Shown here: positions 2,613 to 42,651 of the stretch, one piece after another
Position numbering within the stretch: position 1 is the first letter of the stretch
Layout of the letters: each line of letters begins with the position of its first letter
DNA from: a virus
DNA: 64,000 nucleotides
Direction: 5' to 3' (one strand)
IMG/VR virus record: IMGVR_UViG_3300046804_004848
Location: 1 to 64,000 of that record
The notes under the pieces: generated by a model
What the model saw: only the letters and a program-made list of their open reading frames with translations
Databases searched by the model: none
What the model was told of the DNA's origin: nothing
Position numbers and translations under genes: made by a program

Positions 2613-2726
2613 AGGATGCTAACAGCAAGTTATGATGCTTCGGGAGCCGTCTGTTGTAGGTTCAAATCCTACCATGTCTTGTAAAAGGTATGTAGCTCAA
2701 TGGTAGAGCAACGATAATGCATCCTG
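2613..2726 (+). ncRNA. Y-RNA-like (YrlA-like) RNA with circularly permuted tRNA module; scaffold copy 1
   Basis: AGGATGC-TAACAGCAA...AAT-GCATCCTG closing stem enclosing T arm (GTAGG-TTCAAAT-CCTAC), loop-closed acceptor stem, then D arm (TAGCTCAATGGTAGAGC). Confidence 0.75.
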
Positions 2727-2734
2727 TTTTATAT

Positions 2735-2810
2735 GTAAGCGTGACCCGAATGGCTAGGGAACGGATTGCAACCCCGTTTTATGCAGGTTCAACTCCTGTC
2801 GCTTACTCCA
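2735..2810 (+). tRNA. tRNA-Cys (GCA)
   Basis: Anticodon loop TTGCAAC, T arm GGTTCAACTCC, TCCA end. Confidence 0.9.
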
Positions 2811-2816
2811 AACAAT

Positions 2817-2890
2817 TCCGGGGTAGTATAAAGGCATTATAGGGGTCTCCAAAACCCATGATGGGGGTTCGATTCCCTCCCTCGGAGCCA
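2817..2890 (+). tRNA. tRNA-Trp (CCA)
   Basis: Anticodon loop CTCCAAA, GGTTCGATTCC, GCCA end. Confidence 0.9.
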
Positions 2891-2912
2891 TACTATTTTG
2901 AATAAATACAAC

Positions 2913-3407
2913 ATGCTAATTAAAGAATTACTTACAGAATCTACCAATCGTAAAATTGGTAAAGTTATTGGTGGACAAATTTATGTTCACAAAGACTATG
3001 TTGATTCACCATTACTCAAACGTGAAATACCGCTGTCTTGGTACAAATTAGCTGTTTCTAAATTGCCACCTGATTTTGATTACACTGTGGTACGTTATGA
3101 TTTAAAAGATGGTTCAATCGCATTTATTTCATCACCTGACTTTGATTCTGCAGATGAACCTACAGTAGGTACTTCCATTAAAGTCACTAGAGATGGTAAC
3201 GTTAAAGTTACTAAACCATTAGCTGATCCTTGGATATGGCATCATAAGTGGGAATGGGTTGGTGATGATTATAGTGGGTTTGATGTTGAACAAAGTAAAG
3301 CACGATCCGAAAAATGGAAATCCATTGTAGGTGTAGACAAAGCTGTTTCTTCTAGAATAGGTAAGAAAAGCTATTGGGATCGTGAAATCGTACCTAAAAT
3401 AAAATAA
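2913..3407 (+). CDS. Hypothetical protein resembling a domain of DNA phosphorothioation-associated putative methyltransferases
   Basis: GKVIGGQIYVH...FISSPDFD...PWIWHHKWEWV..DY pattern recognised from memory; N-terminus MLIKELLTE. Confidence 0.45.
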   Translation: MLIKELLTESTNRKIGKVIGGQIYVHKDYVDSPLLKREIPLSWYKLAVSKLPPDFDYTVVRYDLKDGSIAFISSPDFDSADEPTVGTSIKVTRDGNVKVTKPLADPWIWHHKWEWVGDDYSGFDVEQSKARSEKWKSIVGVDKAVSSRIGKKSYWDREIVPKIK

Positions 3408-3408
3408 C

Positions 3409-3498
3409 GGAAGCGTGGCAGAGTGGATTAATGTACCTGACTTGAAATCAGACGGTCATGAAAGTGGCCCGTGAGTTCGAATCTCACCGCTTCCACCA
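3409..3498 (+). tRNA. tRNA-Ser (TGA)
   Basis: CTTGAAA loop, long variable arm, CCA end. Confidence 0.92.
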
Positions 3499-3511
3499 TA
3501 TAAATACTGTT

Positions 3512-3646
3512 ATGAAAATGTGGCAATTACATTTGTATCATGGTGCATGGTTAGCATTACTTATAACAGTAGGCATGCTTACTTATTGGTGGGTATCGCT
3601 ATTAATGTTTATAGCAATATTTGTTTATGCCTTTATATTTGCTTAA
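3512..3646 (+). CDS. Small membrane protein
   Basis: Hydrophobic 44-aa ORF after TATAAATA motif. Confidence 0.5.
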   Translation: MKMWQLHLYHGAWLALLITVGMLTYWWVSLLMFIAIFVYAFIFA

Positions 3647-3652
3647 ATAAAG

Positions 3653-3729
3653 CTGACCGTAGTTCAGTTGGATAGAACAACAGCCTTCTAAGCTGTGGGT
3701 CGGAGGTTCAAATCCTCTCGGTCAGGCCA
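3653..3729 (+). tRNA. tRNA-Arg (TCT)
   Basis: ACAGC-CTTCTAA-GCTGT, CCA end. Confidence 0.92.
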
Positions 3730-3741
3730 TTTAGAAATAAC

Positions 3742-3834
3742 GGAGAGTTGACCGAGAGGCTGAAGGTACCTTCCTGCTAAGAAGGCAAGTGGTCAAAAGC
3801 TGCTTCGTGGGTTCGAATCCCACACTCTCCACCA
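3742..3834 (+). tRNA. tRNA-Ser (GCT)
   Basis: CTGCTAA loop, long variable arm, CCA end. Confidence 0.92.
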
Positions 3835-3873
3835 AAATTTTTATAGCTGTTTTTAATATATAAATAAATTTAT

Positions 3874-3949
3874 TCACCAATAGCTCAGTCGGTAGAGCAG
3901 CAGACTGTTAATCTGTTGGTCCGTGGTTCAAGTCCACGTTGGTGAGCCA
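3874..3949 (+). tRNA. tRNA-Asn (GTT)
   Basis: GCAGA-CTGTTAA-TCTGT, CCA end. Confidence 0.93.
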
Positions 3950-3966
3950 GTTTTAAAAGGAAACTA

Positions 3967-4323
3967 ATGTCAGAATACTTTGGATATCATCTTTTATTAG
4001 ATTGTAGTGGTTGCGAAAATATTGATAGTCGTGAAAACATTTACAATTGGATAAAATATCTTGTTCCTACCATAGATATGATTGCAGCAGGTGAGCCATG
4101 GATTGAATATTTACTTGAGGATGATCCTAAACAAGGGTATACATTGATGCAAGCTATTACAACAAGCAGTATAACCGCACACTTTATGGAATTAGATAAT
4201 ACTGCTTACATTGACATTTTTAGTTGTAAACCATTTGACATAAATTTAGCACAGTATATTGTCCAAACTTATTTCAATCCAAAGAAAATTCGTGTAAACT
4301 ATCTTACACGCCATGCTGATTAA
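3967..4323 (+). CDS. speD: S-adenosylmethionine decarboxylase proenzyme-like
   Basis: GYHLLLDCSGC, ITTSSITAHF (self-cleavage serine region), YIDIFSCKPFD. Confidence 0.75.
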   Translation: MSEYFGYHLLLDCSGCENIDSRENIYNWIKYLVPTIDMIAAGEPWIEYLLEDDPKQGYTLMQAITTSSITAHFMELDNTAYIDIFSCKPFDINLAQYIVQTYFNPKKIRVNYLTRHAD

Positions 4324-4334
4324 ACGTTTTTAAT

Positions 4335-4408
4335 TCCTCCTTAGTTAAGTGGTATAACATCGGCTTTGTAACCCGAAATCATCTGTTCAATTCAGATAGG
4401 GGGAACCA
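4335..4408 (+). tRNA. tRNA-Thr (TGT)
   Basis: TTTGTAA loop, cloverleaf, ACCA end. Confidence 0.85.
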
Positions 4409-4424
4409 ACCTAACTTATAACTT

Positions 4425-4946
4425 ATGAACATTGAACAAAAACGTGGTATGAGTGGTAATCTCAAACCATTTGACCGTAACGACCATGCTCAATACGATA
4501 GTAAAGGCAAACAAGCTTTTATAAAATATTTAGATGGTTTTTTACCAAAGCATTTAAAGACTATTGAAAATCCTAATGAACATGGTATTGATTTATTAAC
4601 CATAGATCAAAACACAAACAAAGTTGTTCAAACATGGGAAATTGAAGTGCGTCATGGCAATTGGCGAGATGATACACCATTTCCATTTAATGACATTAAT
4701 TGTATTGAACGTAAAGATCATCAGTGGCGTAAAAGCAACGAATATTTAAAAAAGATTCCACATCCTATTGAGCATAATCATCAAGTATGTTATGTACAAC
4801 TTAATGCACCATGCACAAGAGCAGTATTAATTGACGGTGCAATTATATTAAATTATCCATTAAAACCATGGGCAAATCGTAAGGGTGATGGTGAGTATGT
4901 TAGACAAGTACCTGTTGCAAAAACCATACAAATAAAAATTGCTTGA
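4425..4946 (+). CDS. PD-(D/E)xK-like nuclease-fold protein
   Basis: GIDLL...WEIEVR motif. Confidence 0.45.
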   Translation: MNIEQKRGMSGNLKPFDRNDHAQYDSKGKQAFIKYLDGFLPKHLKTIENPNEHGIDLLTIDQNTNKVVQTWEIEVRHGNWRDDTPFPFNDINCIERKDHQWRKSNEYLKKIPHPIEHNHQVCYVQLNAPCTRAVLIDGAIILNYPLKPWANRKGDGEYVRQVPVAKTIQIKIA

Positions 4947-4971
4947 CAACATATCTAAATTTAGTTAATAT
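4943..4971 (+). promoter_or_regulatory. Early sigma70 promoter
   Basis: TTGACA-17-TAATAT with ATATCTAAATT spacer motif. Confidence 0.7.
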
Positions 4972-5001
4972 ATCTCTATTGACAACGAAACGGAGATTGA
5001 A

Positions 5002-5313
5002 ATGAGTTTAGTGACTATCAAGTTAGCTCCCCAAGAAGTTTCAACCGAGTTTTATTTCTCAAAAAATCGTATTGGTTTAGTAAGGTCAGTACTTGATCTT
5101 TACACAGCAGCAAAACCTTTTTTCACTGATCTTGAAGGTACAAAAGCTGCTGAAGAAGCATTTGACCTAACTAACAATCCTTATCGTCAAAGTGAACGTG
5201 TAGAACTTTACGGTAGAGGACGTTCGCTTAGTATCGGTGATATTGTTGAAGTGTGTGCGAATGGTGAGACCACCGAGTTTTTATGTGATAGTTTTGGTTG
5301 GATTAAACTGTAA
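5002..5313 (+). CDS. Hypothetical early protein (YodL-like RSLSIGD motif)
   Basis: RSLSIGDIV...FLCDSFGW; GGAG RBS. Confidence 0.6.
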   Translation: MSLVTIKLAPQEVSTEFYFSKNRIGLVRSVLDLYTAAKPFFTDLEGTKAAEEAFDLTNNPYRQSERVELYGRGRSLSIGDIVEVCANGETTEFLCDSFGWIKL

Positions 5314-5323
5314 GGAGTTGGAA

Positions 5324-5569
5324 ATGATACCGCAAGCTACTAAAGATTCACTTGACAGATATGTTAACGAAGGCATTATGCCAGGTAGTTTTCTCCGAGC
5401 AGTACTTACTAATGATTTAGCAAGTGCTGTATTCCAAGCTGATTCTAAAAATTTAGCCGCATTAAAAGATATTATGTTGTATGTTTACAACGAAATACCT
5501 GCTAATGCTTGGGGTAGCACTGCTACTGTTGTAGATTATGCACAACGAACATTTAAGCAGGTTGCATAA
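5324..5569 (+). CDS. Hypothetical phage protein
   Basis: AAGGAG RBS, ATG 5324; PGSFLRAVLTNDL motif. Confidence 0.65.
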   Translation: MIPQATKDSLDRYVNEGIMPGSFLRAVLTNDLASAVFQADSKNLAALKDIMLYVYNEIPANAWGSTATVVDYAQRTFKQVA

Positions 5570-5614
5570 TATCTAAATTTAACGTATAATTCTCTTATTG
5601 ATTAGGAGATTGAT

Positions 5615-6085
5615 ATGCGATTGAATGTTAATTATTACAATGGTTCAGTAACAGTGATCAGTCTAGAAAAAGAAGCATGTTCATATGTTCAAACAGATGG
5701 TGGACGTGCTTCAGATGGATTTAAAGGTACAAAAAAACGTGATTGTGTAACACGTTCAATTTCAATTATTTTAGGTTTGCCCTATCATCAAGTATGGTGG
5801 GAGTTGAATGAGATGCAATATGAAGCAGGATATGATTTTAATCCTGACAAAGGTGTTATTACCTCGGTATGGAAACAATATTTGGAAGAACGTGGTTACA
5901 AGTATGTATCAGTAAAAAAGTCACGTAAGTATGTAACGAAAAAAGATATTCCTACAGGTAAAGTAATTCTGCATACTAGGGGACACTTGTCTGCGTGTAT
6001 TGATCATGTGGTGCATGATGCTTTTGATAGCAGATACAAGGCTAACAAGCCACGTAAATTGTGGGGATATGTTGTTGTAGCATAA
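5615..6085 (+). CDS. Hypothetical phage protein (DCVTR...H motif)
   Basis: ORF with RBS and own promoter TTGCAT-17-TATAAT. Confidence 0.65.
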   Translation: MRLNVNYYNGSVTVISLEKEACSYVQTDGGRASDGFKGTKKRDCVTRSISIILGLPYHQVWWELNEMQYEAGYDFNPDKGVITSVWKQYLEERGYKYVSVKKSRKYVTKKDIPTGKVILHTRGHLSACIDHVVHDAFDSRYKANKPRKLWGYVVVA

Positions 6086-6140
6086 TTAAGTTCCATTCAC
6101 AAACAGATACATGGTGTGGCAAAAATAAAAAAAGTTAATT

Positions 6141-6229
6141 GGGTGGTGCCCCCTACGGCGGTCTGTAAAATCGTTGGCTTTGTAAAGTAGGGAAGTTGCC
6201 TCGTGGAGCGTTACCATCACCACCCACCA
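6141..6229 (+). tRNA. Atypical tRNA-Tyr-like RNA (GTA) lacking a D arm
   Basis: 8-bp acceptor GGGTGGTG/CACCACCC+ACCA; GCGGT-CTGTAAA-ATCGT anticodon arm; T loop AGCGTTA. Confidence 0.6.
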
Positions 6230-6297
6230 TATTGAAGCACATTTTATCAGGGCAGTATTGTTCAGCGGTTTATAGCCGTAAGTGTGTTTCAATATGG
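6227..6297 (+). repeat. Inter-tRNA long-stem element copy 1
   Basis: CCATATTGAAGCACA...TGTGTTTCAATATGG inverted repeat. Confidence 0.8.
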
Positions 6298-6413
6298 TTC
6301 TCCGAGAAGGTACATCAACCAAGCTCTCAGTTCCCTGCTAGGTAGTGATGGATACAGTACACTAGTAAAGCTCTTGGTTTGATCAGTGTGGTGCGAGTCC
6401 ACAAGAACCGCCA
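6296..6413 (+). ncRNA. tRNA-like RNA with large insertion in the anticodon arm
   Basis: GGTTCT/AGAACC-GCCA acceptor, GTGG-TGCGAGT-CCAC T arm, ACCAAG/CTTGGT stem enclosing about 50 nt. Confidence 0.55.
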
Positions 6414-6506
6414 TATTGAAGCACATTACATACCTTGTAACTAGCGGTGGTAGCCTAGTGAAGGATGCGTCTCCTACCAAGACGTTGATAGTGTGTTTCA
6501 ATATGG
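6411..6506 (+). repeat. Inter-tRNA long-stem element copy 2
   Basis: Same arms as copy 1 with a different structured interior. Confidence 0.8.
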
Positions 6507-6575
6507 TGTAGCTTAACGTTGAAGAGCAGCAAGATCAGATCTTGTCAGCACAGGTTCGGGAGCCTGTCACCATAA
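6502..6575 (+). pseudogene. Degenerate tRNA-like sequence (CAG at anticodon position, no CCA)
   Basis: TATGGTG/CACCATA acceptor, GCAAG-ATCAGAT-CTTGT, ACAGG-TTCGGGAG-CCTGT. Confidence 0.5.
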
Positions 6576-6580
6576 TAAAT

Positions 6581-6778
6581 TTTAGAACCTCGGATTACAC
6601 TTTGACCGTTAGCGAAAGTGGGCGATTGTCGCTGCCATACAGACAGGGTGCTAAGATCTACCCCAAAGCTCGCCTTACATGAGTGATAGAAATATCTTAG
6701 GTGGACGCAGCCTACCATAAGGGTAACGTGGACAGTGTAACTACTCAGTTTAGGGCTAATGAGGATTAGTGGCTAAAC
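6581..6778 (+). ncRNA. Unidentified ~200-nt multi-stem RNA
   Basis: Non-coding and GC-rich; stems CACTTT/AAAGTG, CTAAGAT/ATCTTAG, GGTGG/CTACC, GCTAAT/ATTAGT, TTACACT/AGTGTAA. Confidence 0.55.
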
Positions 6779-6792
6779 ACGAATTATTTTTT

Positions 6793-6852
6793 AGGATGCT
6801 AACAGCCATTTAAAACATCAAACTGATAAATTGAACCGTTAAATGCATCCTG
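6793..6852 (+). ncRNA. Y-like scaffold RNA copy 2 carrying an Ile(GAU) anticodon-loop mimic
   Basis: AGGATGC-TAACAGCCA...TCAAA-CTGATAA-ATTGA...AAAT-GCATCCTG. Confidence 0.65.
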
Positions 6853-6859
6853 TATTATT

Positions 6860-6933
6860 GGGGGATTAGTTAAATGGGATAACATCGGCTTTGCAAGTCG
6901 AGATTGAGAGTTCGATTCTCTCATCCTCCACCA
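6860..6933 (+). tRNA. tRNA-Ala (TGC)
   Basis: TTTGCAA loop, G3:U70 pair, CCA end. Confidence 0.9.
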
Positions 6934-7113
6934 TTAAATAGGATGCTCAAAATCTAGTATAAATTCAAATGCTGCTTTATAATCTGTAAAATATCGCATT
7001 TGAAAATTTTGATCGTATAAATCATGTAACATAACTAAACAAACACCTTGTTCACTACGACACAAATATATGTGTAGTCCACTTGGTGTTAAGGTTTGGT
7101 ATACATCGTTCAT
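6934..7113 (-). CDS. Hypothetical protein
   Basis: MNDVYQTLTPSGLHIY... preceded by TAAATA motif. Confidence 0.5.
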   Translation of the reverse strand: MNDVYQTLTPSGLHIYLCRSEQGVCLVMLHDLYDQNFQMRYFTDYKAAFEFILDFEHPI

Positions 7114-7138
7114 AACCATATTTAGTATAGGAAATATA

Positions 7139-7567
7139 ATGAAAGTTGACAAAAAAGAAAATCCATTCTTTAGTATTACTGCCAAAGATTGTGAATGGTC
7201 ATATACTAAAGGTACAGGAGCAGGTGGACAAAAACGTAATAAAACAAGTTCAGCAGTACATTGTACACATCGTGCAAGTGGTGCACATGGGTATAGCGAA
7301 TCTAGTCGTAGTCAACTAGATAATCGTAAAGATGCATTTGAAAAAATGGCTAATAGTGATAAATTTAAAAAGTGGATTAAATTAGAATATATGAAACGCA
7401 CAGGTGAATTAGTAGAAGCTGAACGTGCGTTGGAACGTGAATTAAAGAAAGTTAAAGTAGAAGTAAAGATTGATGGTAAATGGGTTCAAGTCAGTGAGAA
7501 TCAGTTGGTTGATGATCCTGATACATTTGATACAAGTTTTTTAAAGGAGAGTCCAAATGGACAGTGA
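7139..7567 (+). CDS. Class I release-factor-like peptidyl-tRNA hydrolase (ArfB/PrfH-like)
   Basis: GTGAGGQKRNKTSSAV and RSQLDNRKDA motifs; stand-alone GGQ domain. Confidence 0.85.
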   Translation: MKVDKKENPFFSITAKDCEWSYTKGTGAGGQKRNKTSSAVHCTHRASGAHGYSESSRSQLDNRKDAFEKMANSDKFKKWIKLEYMKRTGELVEAERALERELKKVKVEVKIDGKWVQVSENQLVDDPDTFDTSFLKESPNGQ

Positions 7568-7585
7568 CAAGGTACGAAAGATTAT

Positions 7586-7659
7586 GGGGGTATAACTTAA
7601 TGATAAAGTAATTGGCTTTTAACCAATAAATCAGAGTTTGATTCTCTGTGCCCCTACCA
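7586..7659 (+). tRNA. tRNA-Lys (TTT)
   Basis: ATTGG-CTTTTAA-CCAAT, CCA end. Confidence 0.85.
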
Positions 7660-7702
7660 TTATAATTAAGCATATTAAACATAGTGTTCTTAATTATAAT
7701 AG
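7657..7702 (+). repeat. Inter-tRNA long-stem element, divergent copy 3
   Basis: CCATTATAATTAAGCATATT...TAGTGTTCTTAATTATAATAG begins at the tRNA CCA. Confidence 0.6.
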
Positions 7703-7713
7703 TTTAAAGAATA

Positions 7714-7786
7714 CTCTCTGTGGCGTAATCTGGCAGCGTACTGCGTTTGGGGCGCAGCGGTCTTGGTTCAAATCCAAGCAGAGAGA
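7714..7786 (+). tRNA. tRNA-Pro (TGG), CCA not encoded
   Basis: CTGCG-TTTGGGG-CGCAG; GGTTCAAATCC. Confidence 0.85.
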
Positions 7787-7794
7787 CAATTAAT

Positions 7795-7872
7795 AGGACA
7801 TTGAAGGGAATAGGTATACCTTTTTCGCTTAGAACGAAAAGTTTCTCGGTTCGACTCCGAGGTGTCCTACCA
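7795..7872 (+). tRNA. tRNA-Leu (TAG) without long variable arm
   Basis: TTTCG-CTTAGAA-CGAAA; short variable loop; ACCA end. Confidence 0.8.
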
Positions 7873-7875
7873 AAT

Positions 7876-8439
7876 TTACTTCATTCCTGCCATGCTTTTT
7901 AACTGATCAAGTTTGGCATCATACTTAGCACCCCAACTCATTACCCAATTTTTTAGTTTAGTAATATATTGAGATAGCTTACCCTCATCTAGTTGAGGCT
8001 TGTCTTTTGGTTCAATTTTTAATGATGGTGCTTTTTGTGTTACTGTAACCATCGTTTTCTTTAAACCTTCTAATACTGATATAAGTTCAGGAGTAAGTTG
8101 TTTTTCTAAAACCTCTAATATATCCTTATATTTTGGTGATACCGTAGCTTTGGGATCTTTTGAAAGTGTTATAATAAATGATACTGTGTCAATAACACGT
8201 GTTTTTACAGCGTCTTCAATATCAAATAAATCAGATACATTTTCACGTGAAGATTGTTTTACTTCATCTTCAAGTGCTTTAAGTTCGGTTTTAAGTTCAT
8301 TAATACGTTTAACTTTTTTAGCTAAGTTAGTATAGATTTGACTTTGATGGCTTTTTAAAGAAACTGTGGTCTTATCAGGCTCATCCATATATGGAAAGTC
8401 GCCAAGACGTGCTTCATTAATGATTTCAGTATATTTCAT
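7876..8439 (-). CDS. Hypothetical coiled-coil protein with internal-protein-like N-terminus
   Basis: MKYTEIINEA start; upstream ATAAATA motif. Confidence 0.7.
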   Translation of the reverse strand: MKYTEIINEARLGDFPYMDEPDKTTVSLKSHQSQIYTNLAKKVKRINELKTELKALEDEVKQSSRENVSDLFDIEDAVKTRVIDTVSFIITLSKDPKATVSPKYKDILEVLEKQLTPELISVLEGLKKTMVTVTQKAPSLKIEPKDKPQLDEGKLSQYITKLKNWVMSWGAKYDAKLDQLKSMAGMK

Positions 8440-8477
8440 AAAAGTATTTATCCTAGTTTATCTATATAAATATTGGT

Positions 8478-8792
8478 GTGAAAGATATTTACGATTATAT
8501 TAAACTCACGAAAAAGGAACGTCAAGAACATTTGGATCTTGATGACTATTGTATAGAACGTGGTGGTGGCTCAACAATTTGCAAAGGATTACTTGCACAT
8601 TTACTTGAAACTACCATACCTAAAGGGCATCAGATACATGTTTGTCACGCTTGCAATAATGGCAAGTGCAGTAATCCAAAACACTTATATTGGGGTACCG
8701 CTTCAGAAAACCGTATGGATCGTGTTAGGTATGAAAATAGATCCATTAGCGAAATGCTAGAAGACAGGTATCGTAGACGAAAACCTACATGA
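8478..8792 (+). CDS. HNH/His-Me finger endonuclease
   Basis: VCHACNNGKCSNPKHLYWGTASENRMD. Confidence 0.8.
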   Translation: MKDIYDYIKLTKKERQEHLDLDDYCIERGGGSTICKGLLAHLLETTIPKGHQIHVCHACNNGKCSNPKHLYWGTASENRMDRVRYENRSISEMLEDRYRRRKPT

Positions 8793-9484
8793 TTGATGAT
8801 AAATCACATATAATTTTAAATAAAGCAAATTTAGAACTATATTTAAAATATGTTTGTGGCAAACTAAATGCTGACTTTAGTGCAGAAAGTACAACTAATG
8901 CACAATTATTGAACTTATTAGAAGTAAGTTTAACTGATAAAAATGGTTCTAGTGCTAGAGAACAAGTTATAGCACATATGCTTGATTATCAATGGCAAAG
9001 TAAAAAACTAGGTATTGATGCTATAGATTTAAAACACAATAGATACAAAGAGATTAAACCCACATCTAATTCTAAAATGGGTAAAGCTAGTTCGTTAAGG
9101 TTTAATTTTAATGACGTGACACGAGAATCAATTCATAAATATGAACATACAGATATTGTCGTTGCATTGTTTCAAAATTGTAGATTAATTATAGTTCTTG
9201 AGTTTCCGTTTAGTGTGATTGAACAATATTTCAATAGTAGAATAGAAAAAATGTTTACTGATATTAAACATCAAAATAAACGTAAGACGATGAATATTGG
9301 AGCAAAAGAATATATTAGCAGTCCTCATTTGAAAGTACACTATATTGACAAAGAACTTATCCTTGCTTATAATTCAATTACTAAAAAAAATTTAGCTATA
9401 ATAGAAAACGCCACTAACCATGTTAACATCCATACTACCGAATTACTTGAACATAAGATACAGTTTGAGGAATCTATCGGATGA
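8789..9484 (+). CDS. Putative restriction-endonuclease-like PD-(D/E)xK protein
   Basis: GIDAID...YKEIK...FNFND; overlaps methyltransferase start. Confidence 0.5.
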   Translation: MIDDKSHIILNKANLELYLKYVCGKLNADFSAESTTNAQLLNLLEVSLTDKNGSSAREQVIAHMLDYQWQSKKLGIDAIDLKHNRYKEIKPTSNSKMGKASSLRFNFNDVTRESIHKYEHTDIVVALFQNCRLIIVLEFPFSVIEQYFNSRIEKMFTDIKHQNKRKTMNIGAKEYISSPHLKVHYIDKELILAYNSITKKNLAIIENATNHVNIHTTELLEHKIQFEESIG

Positions 9485-10442
9485 ATATTTTCTATCTATT
9501 ATAGACCAACTTGCAGAAGAATTAGAAAATCATCCTTACACCATACAATATCCAATCAAAAAGTTAGAACAAGATTGGAAAAATCTTATTGCTTTTAAAG
9601 AACAAACCAACACTATTAATTCTACATCAAGATTAGGTATGAAATTATGTGAACATTTTTTCCCTAATTTTTTTGATATTGAAAATAACAAAGGTGAAAG
9701 CTTTTCTAAACTGTGGAAAAAAGACAATATTAAAAAAATATTAATTTGGAATAGAAAAAGTCATTCTACTCCATATATGTCAGAACTTAGACGTGGTGTA
9801 TATTTTTGCTTGGGTTTAACTAAAAACACAATGTTTCGCCCACAATTAGCCAAACTTATTTGTAACAAATATAAACCTGATATTGTGCTTGATCCTTGTG
9901 CAGGATGGGGAGGAAGATTATTAGGCACAGTAGCGCATGGTGCAAAATATATAGCTTTTGAACCAAACACAACAACTTATGATGGTTTACAGGCATTAGT
10001 AAAGTTTTGTAATATACAAGATAGAGTGCAATTAATTTGTGATGATGCACGAAATATGCATCAATATGATTTCCCACAAGTAGATATGGTATTAACAAGT
10101 CCACCTTATTTTGATGTGGAAATTTATACAAAACAAACAACACAATCAATCACTAATTGTAACACTTATGATGAATGGGCAACGGGGTTTTTGAAAAATA
10201 TAATAGACCAATCCTTAAGCAGATTAAATAAACATGGTGTAAGTTGTTGGAATGTGGGTAAAGTAGGTTCACGTTTTATGCAAGATGATGTAGCGCATTA
10301 TCACCAACAAAATATGTTTACTAACGTAAATGAATTTAGTGTGATAAGCAGTAAACGACAAGCATTACAAACAACTGATAGCAAAAAAAGTGCTGATGTA
10401 ACGGTTGTATATCAAACATGCGGGTATGGTGCTAACGGTTAA
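9420..10442 (+). CDS. DNA amino-methyltransferase (N4C/N6A type)
   Basis: VLDPCAGWGGR (motif I) and LTSPPYF (motif IV). Confidence 0.85.
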   Translation: MLTSILPNYLNIRYSLRNLSDEYFLSIIDQLAEELENHPYTIQYPIKKLEQDWKNLIAFKEQTNTINSTSRLGMKLCEHFFPNFFDIENNKGESFSKLWKKDNIKKILIWNRKSHSTPYMSELRRGVYFCLGLTKNTMFRPQLAKLICNKYKPDIVLDPCAGWGGRLLGTVAHGAKYIAFEPNTTTYDGLQALVKFCNIQDRVQLICDDARNMHQYDFPQVDMVLTSPPYFDVEIYTKQTTQSITNCNTYDEWATGFLKNIIDQSLSRLNKHGVSCWNVGKVGSRFMQDDVAHYHQQNMFTNVNEFSVISSKRQALQTTDSKKSADVTVVYQTCGYGANG

Positions 10443-10495
10443 CACGAGACCTTGCCAAGGTTTAGTTGAGGGTTCGATTCCCTCTACCCGCTCCA
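10420..10495 (+). tRNA. tRNA-Gly (GCC)
   Basis: TTGCCAA loop, TCCA end; overlaps methyltransferase 3' end. Confidence 0.9.
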
Positions 10496-10502
10496 ATAAT
10501 TA

Positions 10503-10577
10503 GGTGATATGGCGTAGAAGGATGCGCACAGGTTTCATAAGCCTAGGAGGTTGGGTCGGTACCAACTATCACCACCA
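10503..10577 (+). tRNA. tRNA-Met (CAT) with non-canonical T loop
   Basis: TTCATAA loop; T loop GTCGGTA; ACCA end. Confidence 0.75.
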
Positions 10578-11165
10578 TTATTCATTTGGTGTAGATGCAA
10601 GTAATTCCATCAATTCATTTTCATTATAATAATAATTACCAAGAATAAGCAATATAAAGTCAAATACTTGTATTCTACGTGTTAAACCCATTATATTGAT
10701 GTTAATGTTATATATTCTCTCCTCAAGTGAATCATAAAGAATATCCTCAGTTCGTTGTTTCATTTTGAGTTTTTTCTTTACTTTTTCAAATTTTTCTAAA
10801 TCTTTTTTGTTATCCTTGATTTGATCCTTCATTTGTGATTGAGATTGTTCTACTTCTCTACGCATGTTAAAAATTAAATCATTAATTTCAGGATTATGCA
10901 CAGATAATTGATTCCAAAAAACACGCAGCATCATTTGTTTAGCCTCTTGATACATAGTGTTATCAATATAGGCAGAATTATCATTGTCAAATGATTTACG
11001 TCTAAAAGGATCACTTAAAATTTGATAAGCATTATTGATTTCCTGAAATTTAGCTATATTTCCACCTTTGTCAGGATGATTTTCATTAGCTAACTGACGG
11101 TATTTTTGTTTAATTTCATCAAAGGTTGCGTTCTTATTTACACCTAAAATATCATATGGGTTCAT
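10578..11165 (-). CDS. J-domain (DnaJ-like) protein
   Basis: PYDILGV...HPDKGG...FQEINNAYQILSDP. Confidence 0.9.
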   Translation of the reverse strand: MNPYDILGVNKNATFDEIKQKYRQLANENHPDKGGNIAKFQEINNAYQILSDPFRRKSFDNDNSAYIDNTMYQEAKQMMLRVFWNQLSVHNPEINDLIFNMRREVEQSQSQMKDQIKDNKKDLEKFEKVKKKLKMKQRTEDILYDSLEERIYNININIMGLTRRIQVFDFILLILGNYYYNENELMELLASTPNE

Positions 11166-11207
11166 GTAAATATTTAGTTAGGTGGTTTGGCTAGTTAAAT
11201 ATGTTGC

Positions 11208-11783
11208 ATGAAACGTATTAACGATTTGATTTTTGTTGTCAACAATTTTGTTACTAAACATACCTGTCATCAAATGTACGAATACTTAACCAATACTGTA
11301 ACTCATAATATTGCAGATGAGCATGACATGCCTTGGGAGTTAGGTAATAATATTTTTTATTCTGATATTAAAGATACGTATATAAAAGAAAAAGTTTATA
11401 ATATAAAATTTGGTGTCGCTAATTTGCTAAGTTATTTGCATAATACCAAAGTATATCCACATTTTACAGATATGGTTTTATGGCAAAAGCATCAACAAAT
11501 GAATAGGCATGTGGATAATGGAAGCAATCAAGTAGGGCGAGATGATTTAGCCATGAGAAAATATTCTGCAATTATCTATTTAAATGATAATTACAAAGGT
11601 GGCAAGACATTTGTTAGTTTGGATGAAGAAAATGATTATATTTCTAAACCTAAGACAGGTACATTGTTAATGTTTACAAGTGACCAACGTACTACGCATG
11701 GAGTAAAAAAAGTAAAAGTAGGGTATCGTGGCACGTTAGCCATGTGGTTTGCAACAGAAAAGAAGTATCAAGAGAAAGACTAA
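11208..11783 (+). CDS. 2OG-Fe(II) oxygenase (prolyl-4-hydroxylase-like)
   Basis: HVD, YLNDNYKGG, HGV...R motifs. Confidence 0.85.
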   Translation: MKRINDLIFVVNNFVTKHTCHQMYEYLTNTVTHNIADEHDMPWELGNNIFYSDIKDTYIKEKVYNIKFGVANLLSYLHNTKVYPHFTDMVLWQKHQQMNRHVDNGSNQVGRDDLAMRKYSAIIYLNDNYKGGKTFVSLDEENDYISKPKTGTLLMFTSDQRTTHGVKKVKVGYRGTLAMWFATEKKYQEKD

Positions 11784-11784
11784 A

Positions 11785-11860
11785 GGACGGTTAGCTCAGT
11801 TGGTAGAGCGGCACGTTTACACCGTGTAGGTCGGGAGTTCAAACCTCTCACCGTCCACCA
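11785..11860 (+). tRNA. tRNA-Val (TAC)
   Basis: GCACG-TTTACAC-CGTGT, CCA end. Confidence 0.92.
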
Positions 11861-11886
11861 TTATAAAACGGTTAAATACAGTTATT

Positions 11887-12450
11887 ATGACTGTCTCATC
11901 AAAATATTTTATAGATATACCAAATTTAGGTTTTCAATTTTTACAACCTAATTTAAACGCAACTGACTACTTACCTGAAGTTGTTACACATAATTGGGTT
12001 GAGACACAAACTAACAATTTTTTTACAGATCAAGCGATATCATGGTTTAATCATATTGGCTTTGATATTAAACATACATTGTATTTGTTTTGTGCAAACT
12101 CTCAGGTGATAGGTCCGATCCATAGTGATTTAACCAATTATGCTTTTAATTTTGTTGTAAGTGGTTATGGTAAGATGGAATGGATTAAACCGCACAATAA
12201 ACCTTATACACATGAAAAAATATATGGCAATCGTGTGTCAAAGTATTTACGATTTGAACCACATATTGAAGATATGGTCATTGATTCATGGGTTGGTACT
12301 CAAGCTTTGGTACAAGTGTTTACACCACATCGTATTGTTACTAGTCATGAAAAACGCTATACTGTTTCTTTACGTACGCATGGTAAAAAAATACAATCAT
12401 GGGAACAAGCTGTTAGTAATTTACAACAGTATATAAATTCGCCTCTTTAG
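11887..12450 (+). CDS. Hypothetical cupin/2OG-like protein
   Basis: IHSD...PHRI...RYTVSLR pattern. Confidence 0.5.
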   Translation: MTVSSKYFIDIPNLGFQFLQPNLNATDYLPEVVTHNWVETQTNNFFTDQAISWFNHIGFDIKHTLYLFCANSQVIGPIHSDLTNYAFNFVVSGYGKMEWIKPHNKPYTHEKIYGNRVSKYLRFEPHIEDMVIDSWVGTQALVQVFTPHRIVTSHEKRYTVSLRTHGKKIQSWEQAVSNLQQYINSPL

Positions 12451-12515
12451 CTCAGTGGTAGAGACCCATCTTGATAAGGTGGGGGTCCTTGGATCGTTCC
12501 CAAGAAGAGGCACCA
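12441..12515 (+). tRNA. tRNA-Ile (GAT)
   Basis: CCATC-TTGATAA-GGTGG; T loop ATCGTTC; ACCA end. Confidence 0.8.
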
Positions 12516-12532
12516 ATTTTATTAAGGAGAAA

Positions 12533-18008: not shown

Positions 18009-18022
18009 AATTGAAGAACAAT

Positions 18023-18097: not shown

Positions 18098-18104
18098 ATA
18101 AAGT

Positions 18105-34392: not shown

Positions 34393-34393
34393 G

Positions 34394-38955: not shown

Positions 38956-40321
38956 AAATACTATATTTGCTTCTATCTGCATTAAAATTTTGTAGGACTT
39001 GAGCAGATGTTAAAGCAGCATTATATAATCTAGTTACACCAATCCGTCCGTTAAAGTATTGGCTATATTCACCATTATTATAACTACCTAAGTATAAATT
39101 GCTTGGTGTATTTAAAATACTATTTAATGTATGATTAACGCTGCCTATGCTTACGCCATTGATATAAGTTTGTAGTGTTTTTGTTCCACCACTATTTGTC
39201 CATACATAGACAACTTGTTTCCAAGTATTTAATGGTAAGTTATATGTTGTGCTATTGACATATCCACCCGCTCCATCACCCATTTGAGCATAAAGATTAC
39301 CGTTATAACGAATACTATAACTAACGTCTGCAGAAAGTCCACCTGGATCAAACTTACCTAATATGACCTGTGAACCTCCCTGACCTGTTTGGTATACCCA
39401 TGCTTCCATTGTCCAACTACCACTGCTAGGCTCTAGTAGTACATTATCTGCAACAGCTACTTGGCTTGAACTACCATTATAAGTAAAGTATGGATTAGTA
39501 TAGGTTATATTACTTAAAGTCCCCGCTAAAGAGGTATTAGCAAGATTGGTAATTGTAGACCCACTGCCTGAGTAACTTGTACTAAAACTTGGATCATACC
39601 ATAGAACTAAATTTGATGTTACAATGTTTGGTAATTGAAATCTTGATAGTTGGTTATAATAATTTTGCAATATTTGTTCTTGAGTAAGTTTACTAGTATA
39701 AACTTCCATGTTGGCAACATAACCAAATGATTGAACATTGGGTGTTCCAACACCACCTGTCCAATCGTGACTGTTCCCTGCTATAGTTTGAACTGTAGTT
39801 CCTACTTGTTGTCCGTTAATATAAAATGTTTGACCGCTACTATCGCCTGTAACAGCCCACTGTACCCAAACATTTGCAAGACTGCCTACATCATAACCTG
39901 CTGAATAAAATAGGTTAGTATTGTTATCATACATACCCAATGTATTTGAACCTAATTCTATTATTAAAGGGTGATCGGCGGGACTTGTTCTAAACAATGT
40001 GCGCCATGTTGCTGAACTTGATATCATTCTTGCCCAAGCAATATAAGTAAATCCTGTTGTTGGTAATACAGGCACTGCTGATGCAGCTCGCATAACATAT
40101 GTACCTGAAAAATCAAAACACTTAACGCCATTTAACATAGTATATGCTGAGGCACTACTTAAGTTTTGTGTGCGACTATTACCACTTAAATCTGTAACTG
40201 TAGTACCACTACCATTATAGCTAGTACTATTGTTTGCATCAACCCAAATTGCTAGATTATTTAAAATAATGCTAGCATCAACAACTCTTGTACCATTTAA
40301 CGTTACACCTTGTATAATCAT
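38954..40321 (-). CDS. Two-LamG/concanavalin-A-domain virion protein
   Basis: DA..SY.GSG..DLSGN, YINGQ, YNAALTSAQVLQNF. Confidence 0.8.
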   Translation of the reverse strand: MIIQGVTLNGTRVVDASIILNNLAIWVDANNSTSYNGSGTTVTDLSGNSRTQNLSSASAYTMLNGVKCFDFSGTYVMRAASAVPVLPTTGFTYIAWARMISSSATWRTLFRTSPADHPLIIELGSNTLGMYDNNTNLFYSAGYDVGSLANVWVQWAVTGDSSGQTFYINGQQVGTTVQTIAGNSHDWTGGVGTPNVQSFGYVANMEVYTSKLTQEQILQNYYNQLSRFQLPNIVTSNLVLWYDPSFSTSYSGSGSTITNLANTSLAGTLSNITYTNPYFTYNGSSSQVAVADNVLLEPSSGSWTMEAWVYQTGQGGSQVILGKFDPGGLSADVSYSIRYNGNLYAQMGDGAGGYVNSTTYNLPLNTWKQVVYVWTNSGGTKTLQTYINGVSIGSVNHTLNSILNTPSNLYLGSYNNGEYSQYFNGRIGVTRLYNAALTSAQVLQNFNADRSKYSI

Positions 40322-41997
40322 ATTAATCGTTCAATAGATATCATATTGTTATTGTAACTACCACCAATTAGCATTGTTACACGATAACAAAGACTGTTCG
40401 TTGTGTCACTAATAATATAAGTAGCTAAATCTCCTGCACTAGTGAAATTCCAATTTATAGCAAGAGCAGGTGTAGTTGTAACTGTGACAGAAACTCCACT
40501 CCCGCTAGTGCTACCCGTATATAACGAATATAAACCATTTATATAAGCAGAAAAAGAACCACTGACAGTGGCTATTTGAAGGCTACGATTACCTGCAGTT
40601 GACACAGTGGCCTTTAGATTGTCCATAGTAACATAAGTACCTGCGTTGACATAACCACTTACACGATTGTTTAGCAATGTGCTTACACCTGTACCCGCTT
40701 GACTCAGATCAACGTATGCACCTTTAGTACTGCCATCATAAAATCTTAACTGATTTCGGTACACATCCAAGACCACACGGGTTGATAGTGTAGTATTACT
40801 TGTTGGAATACCAAGATTAATCTCACCCCCCTCATCGCCACCACAAGAAGGTAAGGTGAATACACCTGTATTATCAAATGTCGCTGTGAAATTACTTGCT
40901 ACTAAACTAACATTTGCGCTTGTACCATAATAATTACTTGCTGTAACATTACCATTAACAGTCATTCCTGTGTTACTAATATTTGCCATAATTGCGTTAC
41001 TATTAACACCACCTACAAATATTTTAACGTTTTTACCTGATGTTGATGTACCAATAACTAAATTACCACCACTTTGATTTGTGTTACTTGTATTACCTTG
41101 TGCGTATATGTAGCTATCAGCAGCATAAACAATATTACCTAAACTATTAGTTGGTGTATTAGCATCATAGCCACTATTAATAATACCTAGGTCTAAGTAA
41201 TTTACAGTGTCACTTCCATTATCAGCAGTCACAATAAAGTCTGCTGTAGCATCAGCACCTGTACTTTTATTTTGTAGTGTAACTTGTGTATAATAATTTA
41301 CATTAGAATTAAAACTTGCTATAGTATTTGGTAATGGTGTTGTCGTAACACCTAAATTTATTGCTGAAATTCCTGTTGTTGTATTACCTGATATATTAGC
41401 TGTACCTGCAACAATATTACCTGTAGTTGAGATTGAATTTGAACCAAAACTACTTAGAAGAGTTGTTACGTTACTATCACCGTATGAACCACCACCTGCC
41501 GCTGCAAATACACCATTTCCATATAAAACTTGTGATGAATTACCATTTAAGTTAACTGAAGAAATATTACCAATATTATTGGCAGCTATATTTCCTGTTA
41601 TATTTGCTGTACCACTTACTGAAAGATTTCCAACACTTAATCTATTTGTATCTGTTCTATAAGTTAAATCAACATCCGCTCTTACTGTTTGATTAGTAGT
41701 TCTATTTTCCACAAATGTTGGATAGAAGGTTGTTGTTAAACCATTTGTATTTAAAATATCAACAGTATTCGCCACCACCGTTGAAAAAACACCATTACCG
41801 TATAATACATTACTACTATTTCCATCTAAATTAGTTGACTTTATATTTCCTAAATTTGCTGTTACTGCATTGGAAACACTACTAATTGGTGTTTTATAAC
41901 TTGTAAGTGTACCTGACGTATTACTACTTACTAAAAAGACAGTTGTACTATCTATGTTGCTTAATGATGATAATTGACTTACTTTAGTGTTTGCCAT
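40318..41997 (-). CDS. Tail-fibre-like structural protein
   Basis: N/G/S/T-rich, GDEGGEI motif. Confidence 0.7.
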   Translation of the reverse strand: MANTKVSQLSSLSNIDSTTVFLVSSNTSGTLTSYKTPISSVSNAVTANLGNIKSTNLDGNSSNVLYGNGVFSTVVANTVDILNTNGLTTTFYPTFVENRTTNQTVRADVDLTYRTDTNRLSVGNLSVSGTANITGNIAANNIGNISSVNLNGNSSQVLYGNGVFAAAGGGSYGDSNVTTLLSSFGSNSISTTGNIVAGTANISGNTTTGISAINLGVTTTPLPNTIASFNSNVNYYTQVTLQNKSTGADATADFIVTADNGSDTVNYLDLGIINSGYDANTPTNSLGNIVYAADSYIYAQGNTSNTNQSGGNLVIGTSTSGKNVKIFVGGVNSNAIMANISNTGMTVNGNVTASNYYGTSANVSLVASNFTATFDNTGVFTLPSCGGDEGGEINLGIPTSNTTLSTRVVLDVYRNQLRFYDGSTKGAYVDLSQAGTGVSTLLNNRVSGYVNAGTYVTMDNLKATVSTAGNRSLQIATVSGSFSAYINGLYSLYTGSTSGSGVSVTVTTTPALAINWNFTSAGDLATYIISDTTNSLCYRVTMLIGGSYNNNMISIERLI

Positions 41998-42000
41998 GTT

Positions 42001-42481
42001 TTATTCCGTTGATATGACTAAATTATTTTCTGTTAAAATAAAACCTGCAACACTTTCTTGTATAATGCCTGTTTCTGCAGGTGGGGGTGGAGGTGTAGGT
42101 CTATCTTGATCGCCAACAACACTACCTAATCCTCCTCCTAAACGTCCTAACCCTTTTAATCCAAGATTACCTATAGGCATTCTAGTAACCTGTTAATTCT
42201 GTAATACAGACAATCCCTGCAGATGCAACTTGTAATAAACTAACTATCGTCTGCCCAGGCTCCACCGCTAAAAATTCTGTGCTTCCACCTAAAATAATCA
42301 TACTATTTGCTGTAGCAGTTGGTGCTGTTCCTAATTCAACATAAGTATCTTGTTGACATGTAACTCTAATGATAGCAGTGGTGTTACCTACTGCATTGCT
42401 AGAAACTGCAGAACCTGACGTTGTTATATTTTGTGTTGTCCCAGGTACAAACGCACCATTTCTAATCGTTAAAACTGACAT
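42001..42481 (-). other. Two small structural-region genes (42001-42180, 42182-42481)
   Basis: Manual ORF MPIGNLGLKGLGRLGGG... and listed 99-aa ORF. Confidence 0.55.
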
Positions 42482-42552
42482 AGTATAATCCCTTATAGGG
42501 TATTTATCTTAATATTTAAATTAAGTTTACTGTAATGTTATAAATAAAAGTA

Positions 42553-42651
42553 AGGATCCTAACAGCAAATATTTTTGGCCTTCTTAATCTCTTTGTGCAA
42601 TCCCTCAGATGAGGCTAGCCTCAGCGTGTAGATATCCCAAAATGGATCCTG
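42553..42651 (+). ncRNA. Y-like scaffold RNA copy 5, stand-alone in the structural region
   Basis: AGGATCC-TAACAGCAA...AAAT-GGATCCTG; CTGAGG-type internal hairpin TGAGG-CTAG-CCTCA; upstream TATAAATA. Confidence 0.65.

Follow-up and report, generated by a model that had tools for sequence, protein, structure and literature searches.

What are five short elements that share one design around differing interiors, and what ties them to the Ro60-like protein gene in front of which two of them stand? The question is raised by the first 64 kb (hereafter the window) of IMG/VR virus record IMGVR_UViG_3300046804_004848. The record is 137,959 bp long and is rated by CheckV as only 39% complete, and for this reason the source virus is probably a jumbo phage. 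A first-pass annotation of the window had proposed that the elements, here E1 to E5, form a Y-RNA-like family in which a common stem and motif (the handle) frames exchangeable cargo mimicking transfer RNA (tRNA), and had linked them to the product of a DUF2828 gene at 19454-20836. We found that the five elements belong to one modular family, probably of small non-coding RNA genes, that the stem of this family is under pairing selection, and that its members accompany DUF2828/DUF7788 genes in many phages. These findings suggest that the handle probably docks on the DUF2828 protein and that the cargo may serve as adaptor or decoy.

Five elements share one handle

All five proposed elements were present on the + strand, with the stems and motifs that had been described for them. 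E1 (114 nucleotides (nt), 2613-2726) is closed by a stem of 2613-2619 with 2719-2725, carries the motif TAACAGCAA at 2620-2628 and ends with G 2726; it lies between tRNA-Arg (2530-2607) and tRNA-Cys (2735-2810), both on the + strand. E2 (60 nt, 6793-6852; stem 6793-6799/6845-6851, motif TAACAGCCA, G 6852) is a minimal form and ends 7 nt before tRNA-Ala (6860-6933). E3 (165 nt, 19209-19373; stem 19209-19215/19366-19372, motif ATACAGCAA, G 19373) is followed by another minimal form, E4 (57 nt, 19382-19438; stem 19382-19388/19431-19437, motif TAACAGCAA, G 19438). E5 (99 nt, 42553-42651; stem 42553-42559/42644-42650, motif TAACAGCAA, G 42651) is flanked by two minus-strand open reading frames.

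The two strands of each closing stem are exact complements: AGGATGC/GCATCCT in E1 and E2, AGGATGG/CCATCCT in E3, AGAATGC/GCATTCT in E4 and AGGATCC/GGATCCT in E5. In all five, the handle consists of this 7-bp stem, two bases, ACAGCAA (ACAGCCA in E2), an interior, the 3′ stem strand and a G, with interiors that range from 34 to 142 nt. At the flanks, E3, E4 and E5 read AAG on the 5′ side and E1 and E2 read UAG, and the 3′ side reads CUGU in E1-E4 and CUGA in E5. The pattern AGRATSSWWACAGCMA matched exactly five times in the window; in the 137,959-bp record it matched five times forward and never in reverse, and the reversed pattern, used as a control, did not match. With up to two mismatches, six matches were found against 1.64 ± 1.35 expected, a number reached by 1 of 100 shuffles. 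The terminal stem was present in the minimum-energy fold of every element, and the fold z-scores of the whole elements, from E1 to E5, were modest at −1.46, −3.87, −1.07, −1.39 and −1.07, the best being that of E2. An integron attC-like site was considered and rejected, as the paired strands are not AAC/GTT cores and the elements are strictly strand-specific.

The stem is under pairing selection

We built a covariance model, R1, from ten aligned short elements, two from the window (E2 and E4) and eight from the loci of other phages, with the 7-bp stem as its only structure annotation. On the whole 138-kb record at an expectation value (E) of at most 1, R1 found all five elements and nothing else. 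The scores were 62.8 and 61.7 bits for the seed members E2 and E4, 29.6 for E1, 23.1 for E3 and 21.4 for E5, the last with an E-value of 0.05-0.11. In E3 the model found the 5′ half and paired it with a wrong 3′ partner; the true closing stem was read straight from the sequence.

Over 32 sources at E ≤ 0.01, R1 gave 52 matches, all 52 of them on the + strand. The stem was 99.7% paired in the 52-row alignment and showed compensatory changes at seven of seven pairs, with the reservation that the alignment (A3) was fitted to the model's own structure, which favours pairing. Double changes filled 123 cells, compared with 31.9 ± 5.1 in shuffles, and none of 500 shuffles reached this count. When the register was slid as a control, pairing was 30-45%. 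Only 1 of 364 stem cells held a G-U pair. The core following the stem was nearly constant across the 52 rows (C 52, A 49, G 52, C 52, A 50, A 47), and all 52 had a G directly behind the 3′ strand, with U next in 37. The second stem base was G in 36 rows and A in 16, and is G in all five window copies. Minimal forms of the family measure 55-73 nt. Together, the model, the pairing and the compensatory changes uphold the covarying-stem family that had been proposed from the window, and indicate that the five elements are probably RNA genes of a single modular kind.

The cargo is usually derived from tRNA

In E1, positions 2648-2714 aligned with model positions 23-86 of 114 of the Rfam family YrlA (RF02553; 36.1 bits, E 6.7e-7). 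Its interior runs from T-arm through a closed acceptor-like hairpin to D-arm, which makes it a permuted tRNA-like body. The hairpin of E2 has the loop core CUGAUAA, resembling the Ile(GAU) anticodon loop, which is UUGAUAA in tRNA-Ile, and the interior of E4 contains CUUGAAA, exactly the anticodon-loop sequence of the tRNA-Ser(UGA) that the phage itself encodes. In the minimum-energy folds the E2 loop is 9 nt and the E4 hairpin is unformed. E3 holds a large multi-hairpin insert and E5 another larger insert, both with weakly supported folds, and a comparison of E5 with Rfam gave matches at chance level only. These are the insert types that the annotation had assigned to the individual elements.

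The same kinds of cargo recurred in other phages. Among short elements (up to 80 nt), 19 of 48 folded with a 7-nt N-U-NNN-R-N loop, compared with 0.46% of shuffles; such loops include CUUGUAA, CUGUUAA, CUCUUAA, CUGCUAA and CUUUUAA. At loci L027 and L009 the same handle surrounds YrlA-like cores, and at L075 and L012 it surrounds unpermuted tRNA bodies lacking only the acceptor stem (L075 aligned with tRNA model positions 5-66 at 52.8 bits). Locus L058 holds tRNA-shaped RNAs at 4565-4677 and 4739-4858 (49 and 45 bits) with acceptor, D and T arms, in which a closed hairpin with (U)AACAGCAA or GGACAGCAA behind it takes the place of the anticodon arm. Compared with E1, the handle is here circularly permuted. 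Large elements (about 148-260 nt) stand just upstream of the gene in related phages, as E3 does. At L094, L096, L118, L126, L139, L148, L153, L162 and L167 they share the motif UGGAG-hairpin-U(U/G)GAAGG inside and a 3′ tract rich in A, a pattern that E3 fits loosely; no Rfam match was seen for these large gene-upstream elements. The YrlA-core match of E1, the tRNA-body inserts and the anticodon-loop-like hairpins agree with the tRNA-mimic cargo originally suggested, and across the family the cargo is usually derived from tRNA.

The neighbouring gene encodes a protein with a predicted Ro60 fold

The gene at 19454-20836 on the + strand encodes 460 amino acids with matches to the Pfam families DUF7788 (PF25043, 8.2e-51) and DUF2828 (PF11443, 1.2e-32). 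These were the only Pfam families found at E ≤ 0.01, and TROVE was not among them. The protein matched phrog_850, annotated 'RNA-binding protein', at 1.5e-146, and a search of its profile against PDB sequences reached E 0.061, in a 42-residue stretch of the vWA part. An AlphaFold2 model made from a 40-sequence alignment had a mean predicted local distance difference test of 81.6 and a predicted template-modelling (TM) score of 0.75. When this model was compared with PDB by Foldseek, the 12 rows listed for ranks 1-12 were all Ro60, Rsr or phage Ro60, including phiLo phage Ro60, Xenopus and human Ro60 and Deinococcus Rsr; the best was 9kop (E 1.5e-7, TM 0.59). The alignments with 9kop, 9l5y, 1yvr, 2nvo, 9nen and 1yvp covered 491-569 columns with TM 0.40-0.59 and E from 1.5e-7 to 1.8e-4, at 12-15% identity between the window protein and solved Ro60s. 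The MIDAS motif (metal-ion-dependent adhesion site) of the vWA part, D267-x-S269-x-S271, was invariant in the 40 aligned sequences, as were T339 and D371. The modelled structure thus supports a protein that is Ro-like at the level of the fold, a predicted HEAT-repeat ring with a vWA part and MIDAS, in line with the Ro-like, vWA-containing protein of the annotation. We keep the label 'Ro-like' because the model matches Ro60 over essentially its full length.

Proteins of this kind are common. DUF2828/DUF7788 occurred in 711 of 50,697 phage records, and at least 8,000 relatives were found in metagenomes. A search of the ESM Atlas returned viral DUF2828 clusters only, and a megablast search of 18900-21000 against named phages found nothing.

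E3 and E4 form a putative transcription unit with the gene

A sigma-70-like promoter (TTGACA-17-TACTAT, 19170-19198, + strand, 10/12 consensus matches) lies 10 nt upstream of E3 and is preceded by a terminator-like hairpin at 18958-18977. A gap of 15 nt separates E4 from the ATG of the DUF2828 gene, and the unit closes with another terminator-like hairpin at 20867-20890 (+ strand, a 10-pair stem followed by T8). The proposed order of promoter, E3, E4, gene and terminator is thereby confirmed at the level of a consensus scan, by which the promoter was called and in which promoter-like sites were not enriched in the region. Metatranscriptome contigs from three runs of two studies, derived from a strain about 95% identical, bridge 18677-20857, with a word depth of 10-18 compared with 0-3 in most neighbouring bins. 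The contigs carry no RNA ends, strand or levels and may include DNA carry-over, and they fit transcription of the E3-E4-gene unit. High depth at 2168-2834 and 10172-10838, with joints 2710>10468, was considered as expression of E1 and rejected, as it came from the tRNAs of other organisms cross-mapping onto D-arm-like sequence. In the vicinity of E5, the consensus scan found no sigma-70-like promoter or terminator site, and E5 is the weakest of the five members.

Handle elements accompany DUF2828 genes

The association with DUF2828 genes that the annotation had put forward was examined from both sides. Starting from the protein, we took the loci of 80 of 165 confirmed IMG/VR relatives. In the 68 distinct loci of this set, the element density given by a strict scanner was 0.68 per kb over the 800 nt that precede the gene and 0.10 per kb elsewhere on the forward strand, with 0.04 per kb in the reverse complement and 0.018 per kb in reversed sequence as controls. 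R1 was run at E ≤ 1 on both strands of 52 of the 80 loci (355,560 bases), evident duplicates being omitted; all 104 matches lay on the strand of the gene, clustered just upstream or downstream of it. Starting from the RNA, an 18-nt handle pattern was found in at least 136 IMG/VR stretches, from which 79 loci with 85 distinct sites were analysed. Among the matches listed, 68 of the 85 sites had the closing stem and the G, and a DUF2828 homologue lay within ±6 kb of 39 of these complete sites, co-oriented in 39 of 39 cases, and of none of the 17 sites that had no closing stem. The elements often sit between the last tRNA and the start codon, in tandem upstream or downstream of the gene. Co-occurrence was thus borne out in both directions and against controls.

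Complete genomes of named phages gave the same result. Elements were found in 13 of 16 with the gene, among them Bas63 (see below), and in 1 of 5 without it. In whole-record scans of VpaE1 (Felixounavirus), Listeria LP-124, Mycobacterium phage Lumos and Ralstonia RSP15, every match was on the strand of the gene and within about 4 kb of it. The two adjacent elements of VpaE1 are at 25653-25726 and 25820-25886 of KM657822.1, and the single element of Lumos, with gp56 as its candidate protein partner, is at 42497-42558 of KT372003.1. In a blind set of four (KVP40, Bxz1, phiKZ and SPO1), only KVP40 encoded DUF7788, and only KVP40 had a match (30.8 bits), on the same strand as the gene and about 8 kb from it. 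R1 found no match in Bxz1, phiKZ, SPO1 or T4, all of which are without the gene. T5, also without DUF7788, had one weak match (NC_005859.1 96992-97049, 23.2 bits, E 0.04), which may be due to chance. Ten further DUF2828 phages were searched with stricter filters and four had matches. These adjoin the gene in Klebsiella FBKp34 and Campylobacter F374; in XbC2 (OP292654.1 309874-311582) and 7t3 (MK773491.1 4845-4910 and 12742-12802) they lie on the strand of the gene at a distance, to which we return below. Four of the six negatives (Thrax1, PEF1, phiM19 and AsFcp_1) were rescanned locally with greater sensitivity. Thrax1 then showed three elements in tandem immediately upstream of its gene, PEF1 one element and phiM19 one of 42 nt. 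Several of these matches score just 15-22 bits and were accepted on the full stem, CAGCAA, the 3′ G and position. The handle family is therefore widespread in cultured phages, and it is tractable in E. coli.

Genes around the elements

ARAGORN finds 19 tRNA genes in the window and Rfam adds another; all are + strand genes and fall within 1987-18179. tRNA was the sole Rfam family to pass its gathering threshold in the window. The additional tRNA (10503-10574, 41.9 bits) directly follows tRNA-Gly(GCC) and was missed by ARAGORN. Two tRNAs are unusual. tRNA-Leu(CAG) at 6502-6575 has the odd anticodon loop AUCAGAU, and tRNA-Pro(UGG) at 7714-7787 has the loop UUUGGGG; both have no CCA end, whereas CCA is encoded by most of the other window tRNAs. 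The tRNA region also contains genes for a P-loop kinase (phrog_10255, 379-1233), an RF-1-domain protein of the ArfB/peptidyl-tRNA-hydrolase type (7070-7567), a phosphoesterase (phrog_547, 12455-13138) and an RNase H-like protein (PF04308, 18477-18959). This set could serve RNA end-healing or ribosome rescue.

Notable neighbours of DUF2828 were also seen in other phages. Bacteria can have rsr, yrlA and rtcB arranged in an operon. LP-124 (locus L087, NC_047745.1), in which three handle elements stand in front of the DUF2828 gene, has a gene for an RtcB-like 'tRNA-splicing ligase' at 5330-6482, 1.3 kb downstream of DUF2828, a layout that echoes the bacterial rsr-Y RNA-rtcB operons. In Sinorhizobium phage phiM19 (L243, KR052481.1), the DUF2828 gene has a gene for an Appr-1-p processing (macro-domain) enzyme (1654-2217) about 0.7 kb away on its upstream side and a tRNA labelled 'tRNA-TERM' (6593-6668) about 2.2 kb away on its downstream side.

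How the elements may work

The explanation that we consider probable is the following. The handle, a 7-bp terminal helix with a single-stranded N-N-(A/U)-CAGCAA 3′ of its 5′ strand and a G (usually GU) after its 3′ strand, would frame an exchangeable, usually tRNA-derived insert. It would dock on the Ro60-shaped DUF2828/DUF7788 ring, as the conserved stem of a Y RNA does on Ro60, an analogy to which the operon layout, the fold of the protein and the YrlA-type core all lend support. The elements would be released as discrete mature RNAs, and the insert would show a tRNA body or an anticodon stem-loop to tRNA-recognizing enzymes, with anticodon nucleases as candidate targets. Acting as adaptor or decoy, it may thus protect the translation supply of the phage or blunt a host defence. 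A role in counter-defence gains weight from the phenotype of a homologous gene, g130 of phage Bas63, against the Ppl defence, described below.

Several observations weigh against this explanation, besides the limits of alignment A3 and of the metatranscriptome contigs given above. Binding of the handle to the protein is drawn from linkage for every member. The fold z-scores of E1, E3, E4 and E5 (−1.07 to −1.46) are unremarkable, E3 and E5 score just 21-23 bits with R1, which mis-pairs E3, and E5 has no predicted promoter and is antisense to its neighbours. Several of the accepted matches in named phages score just 8-22 bits. Aeromonas phage AsFcp_1 had no element within ±3 kb of the gene even with filters off, and FNU3 and Lak-C1 had none in a whole-record search made with strict filters only. 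In XbC2 and 7t3, 160-205 kb separate the matches from the DUF2828 gene; as with E5, RNA and protein genes can be far apart when the genome is large. The 138-kb record contains no gene for RtcB or an Rnl2-type RNA ligase, an absence that says little because the record is 39% complete. Finally, the preprint that reports the Bas63 phenotype (PMC11482910) proposes that Ppl degrades DNA, and such an activity makes no obvious call for a tRNA mimic.

Could the handle be a processing or stability signal of phage tRNA arrays, read by a host RNase or another phage factor, with the DUF2828 protein a mere co-resident that does not bind it? E1 and E2 do lie inside the tRNA array, 12-17 kb from the gene, and among the matches listed, 29 of the 68 complete elements had no DUF2828 gene inside 6 kb. 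The DUF2828 genes stood in or beside tRNA arrays in every annotated case examined, so part of the linkage could reflect shared location. However, of the tRNA-rich phages that lack the gene, T4, Bxz1, phiKZ and SPO1 gave no match and T5 only the weak one. The elements also cluster tightly around the DUF2828 gene, as tandem copies immediately before or after it; the putative promoter and terminator of E3 and E4 are those of the gene, and the fold of its product is that of a known small-RNA-binding ring. We consider such a signal an unlikely explanation.

The position of E3 and E4 between promoter and start codon, E4 being 15 nt before the ATG, would also suit a cis-acting leader that regulates translation or transcription of DUF2828, for example by autoregulation, with the dispersed copies as relics and no free RNAs. 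The continuity of the RNA-library contigs from the elements into the gene fits this as well. Yet in other phages the elements are found downstream of the gene or between tRNAs, and E1, E2 and E5 keep a perfect handle far from any DUF2828 gene. A leader would have no need of diverse tRNA-like cargo, and a leader role is compatible with release of the RNAs. An exclusive leader function therefore appears improbable.

That the elements act as DNA, as the terminal inverted repeats of a miniature mobile element or as a recombination site, is very improbable: a 7-bp inverted repeat bounds dispersed copies with differing interiors and contains almost no G-U pairs, but none of the 104 R1 matches in the 52 loci was on the opposite strand, the conserved CAGCAA and 3′ G break the symmetry, a transposase and target duplications were not seen, the interiors match tRNA and YrlA models, and the region is present in RNA libraries.

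If the handle does dock on the DUF2828 protein, the consequences reach beyond this locus. DUF2828/DUF7788 is one of the commoner unexplained phage families, usually labelled just 'RNA-binding' or 'Ro-like'. Likely RNA partners, a searchable signature and exact positions in cultured phages make binding and function directly testable. Modular tRNA mimicry, by whole tRNA bodies of three different topologies as well as by bare hairpins resembling anticodon loops, would be an unexplored phage answer to tRNA-directed host activities.

Comparison with known systems

The closest layout is that of Ro60 and its Y RNAs. As in the YrlA and phiLo systems, the gene for a ring-shaped HEAT and vWA protein is accompanied by one to several small RNA genes on the same strand, and the RNAs are closed by a helix of their 5′ and 3′ ends and contain a tRNA-like module. 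The same layout is set out, for true TROVE proteins with Y RNAs of the CGAA type, by Chen et al. 2014 (PMC4201824) and, with the Ro60 of Thermus phage phiLo and its Yrl1 and Yrl2, by the phiLo paper (PMC12135203). The Y RNA helix motif bound by Rsr is given as GNCGAA(N0-1)G by Chen et al.; neither GNCGAA nor CGAA occurs in any of the five window elements, confirming that the canonical motif is absent here. The handle is instead a plain 7-bp helix with single-stranded CAGCAA. In E1 the stem of the YrlA model (positions 1-22 and 87-114) stays unaligned, and the best YrlA score, 36.1 bits, compares with a gathering score of 69. The YrlA tRNA-like domain is present in E1 and the L027 and L009 elements, not in E2-E5, and other cargo of the family consists of unpermuted tRNA bodies or of bare hairpins like anticodon loops. 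The protein differs too, for its hits are to DUF2828/DUF7788 and to no TROVE model at E ≤ 0.01. YrlA-type RNAs are encoded on the strand of a Ro60 (TROVE) orthologue and no more than about 4 kb from it; here E3 and E4 abut the Ro60-fold gene, and the distance is 12-22 kb for E1, E2 and E5. R1 had no match in Bxz1, which is among the sort of mycobacteriophages that the Chen and phiLo papers treat. Iyer et al. 2021 note that some jumbo phages have ROT/TROVE proteins whose partner is tRNA-like. A search of the literature on DUF2828, TROVE, Ro60, Y RNA and phage yielded no account of these RNAs. We place the family with the Ro/Y-RNA systems, from which it is set apart by its protein family and by its handle.

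Phage tRNA arrays and variant tRNAs have been proposed to evade tRNA-targeting defences. Our elements likewise lie within or beside such arrays and copy anticodon-loop sequences. They differ in having a protein-type handle in place of an acceptor stem or complete cloverleaf, and because they have neither of the latter, they cannot be charged.

A homologue of the window gene has been reported as a counter-defence gene in Bas63, a Felixounavirus. According to the PhageMaP preprint (PMC11482910), deletion of Bas63 g130 led to severely smaller plaques on Ppl hosts, an effect that complementation reversed. Its authors describe a Ro60-like structure for g130 and a position upstream of a tRNA array, and speculate that some annotated tRNAs are Y RNAs, which is the nearest prior idea to ours. 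The VpaE1 protein ORF045 is 41% identical to the window protein, and the Bas63 locus has 95% DNA identity to the VpaE1 locus in a match overlying bas63_0130, so that by sequence bas63_0130 is a homologue of the window gene. In Bas63 we located handle elements at about 82069-82142 and 82236-82300 of MZ501086.1. They lie in the gaps between the annotated tRNAs and are not those tRNAs, and the RNAs are not identified in the available text of the preprint. They offer a mechanistic lead for the reported anti-Ppl phenotype.

An unexpected likeness was found with the Class I RNAs of social amoebae. The best permissive Rfam match of E4 was Dicty_Class_I_RNA (RF01414), aligned over its full length (1-56; 24.4 bits, E 0.018). 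Over three scans, this family was top or near top, with full-length alignments, for four elements: E4, one at L056 (29.4 bits) and two at L071 (23.9 and 17.8 bits). All of these scores are under the gathering score of 41.5. The novelty of the family, as first annotated, thus stands with a qualification: an existing Rfam family is matched recurrently, but never at its gathering score. Since the matches are sub-gathering and RF01414 is defined for social amoebae, they widen the finding and do not remove it.

According to Kjellin et al. 2021 (PMC7919456), Class I RNAs measure 42-65 nt, run from (A)AG to CUGU, and have a variable interior and a short terminal stem that covaries and keeps an invariant 5′ G. 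Directly after the 5′ strand stands an 11-nt motif ending in UUACAGCAA, of which U3, C6, C9, A10 and A11 are nearly invariant. Other organisms were searched in that study, and the class was deemed unique to Dictyostelia. The phage elements have the same architecture and a near-identical consensus, the columns that correspond to C6, C9, A10 and A11 being conserved in 52, 52, 50 and 47 of 52 rows; E2 has C at the A10 position. In size, E2 (60 nt) and E4 (57 nt) fall inside the Class I range, and E1, E3 and E5 measure 99-165 nt. Many phage members differ in having long tRNA-like inserts. The settings also differ: Class I genes are found in amoebal hosts with a Dictyostelium upstream sequence element (DUSE), a eukaryotic element, about 60 nt upstream, whereas the present elements are on a phage record with bacterial-type tRNAs and a sigma-70-like promoter.

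A protein of the DUF2828 kind also exists in these amoebae. DLAC_02580 of Tieghemostelium (Dictyostelium) lacteum, encoded on a 1.2-Mb contig, is a 504-amino-acid DUF2828 and DUF7788 protein with 32% identity to the phage protein over 488 residues (E 8e-76), and further homologues were found in the amoebozoans Cavostelium, Nematostelium and Flabellula and in one chytrid. In a quick, preliminary tree of 36 rows, rooted at the midpoint and with Shimodaira-Hasegawa-like approximate likelihood-ratio support, 13 phage and 23 eukaryote-type proteins formed two fully supported groups, with the T. lacteum protein among Amoebozoa. The separate phage and eukaryotic clades argue against recent transfer. 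The homologue searches returned no Dictyostelium discoideum protein, which is not evidence of absence, as the query words came mostly from a non-homologous N-terminal extension or the entries were unnamed representatives of 50% clusters. In the available text of Kjellin et al., the only direct binder shown for Class I RNA is Rnp1A/CIBP, a protein with an RNA recognition motif. The preprint of that study lists GuaB, NdkC, CIBP/Rnp1A and DDB_G0281243 in a pull-down with DdR-21, one of the Class I RNAs. DDB_G0281243 is there a protein of unknown function with orthologues in all well-annotated Dictyostelia genomes that the authors searched.

From the resemblance of the sequences, a tie between the phage handle RNAs and Class I RNAs is plausible. 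Prompted by the near-identical consensus, the T. lacteum DUF2828 protein and other amoebozoan homologues, the separate clades and the DdR-21 pull-down, we tentatively suggest that the two may be the same kind of molecule, ligands of DUF2828/DUF7788 proteins with a Ro60 fold. They might then represent, still as a conjecture, a second and ancient branch of Ro/Y-RNA ribonucleoproteins that extends across phages, Amoebozoa and possibly other eukaryotes with DUF2828. The likeness of the handle and the presence of a dictyostelid DUF2828 gene bear on what the abundant, developmentally regulated Class I RNAs bind and do. If the suggestion is correct, the Class I stem with UUACAGCAA would be a docking site for DUF2828, which would speak to a role that has been in question since 2004.

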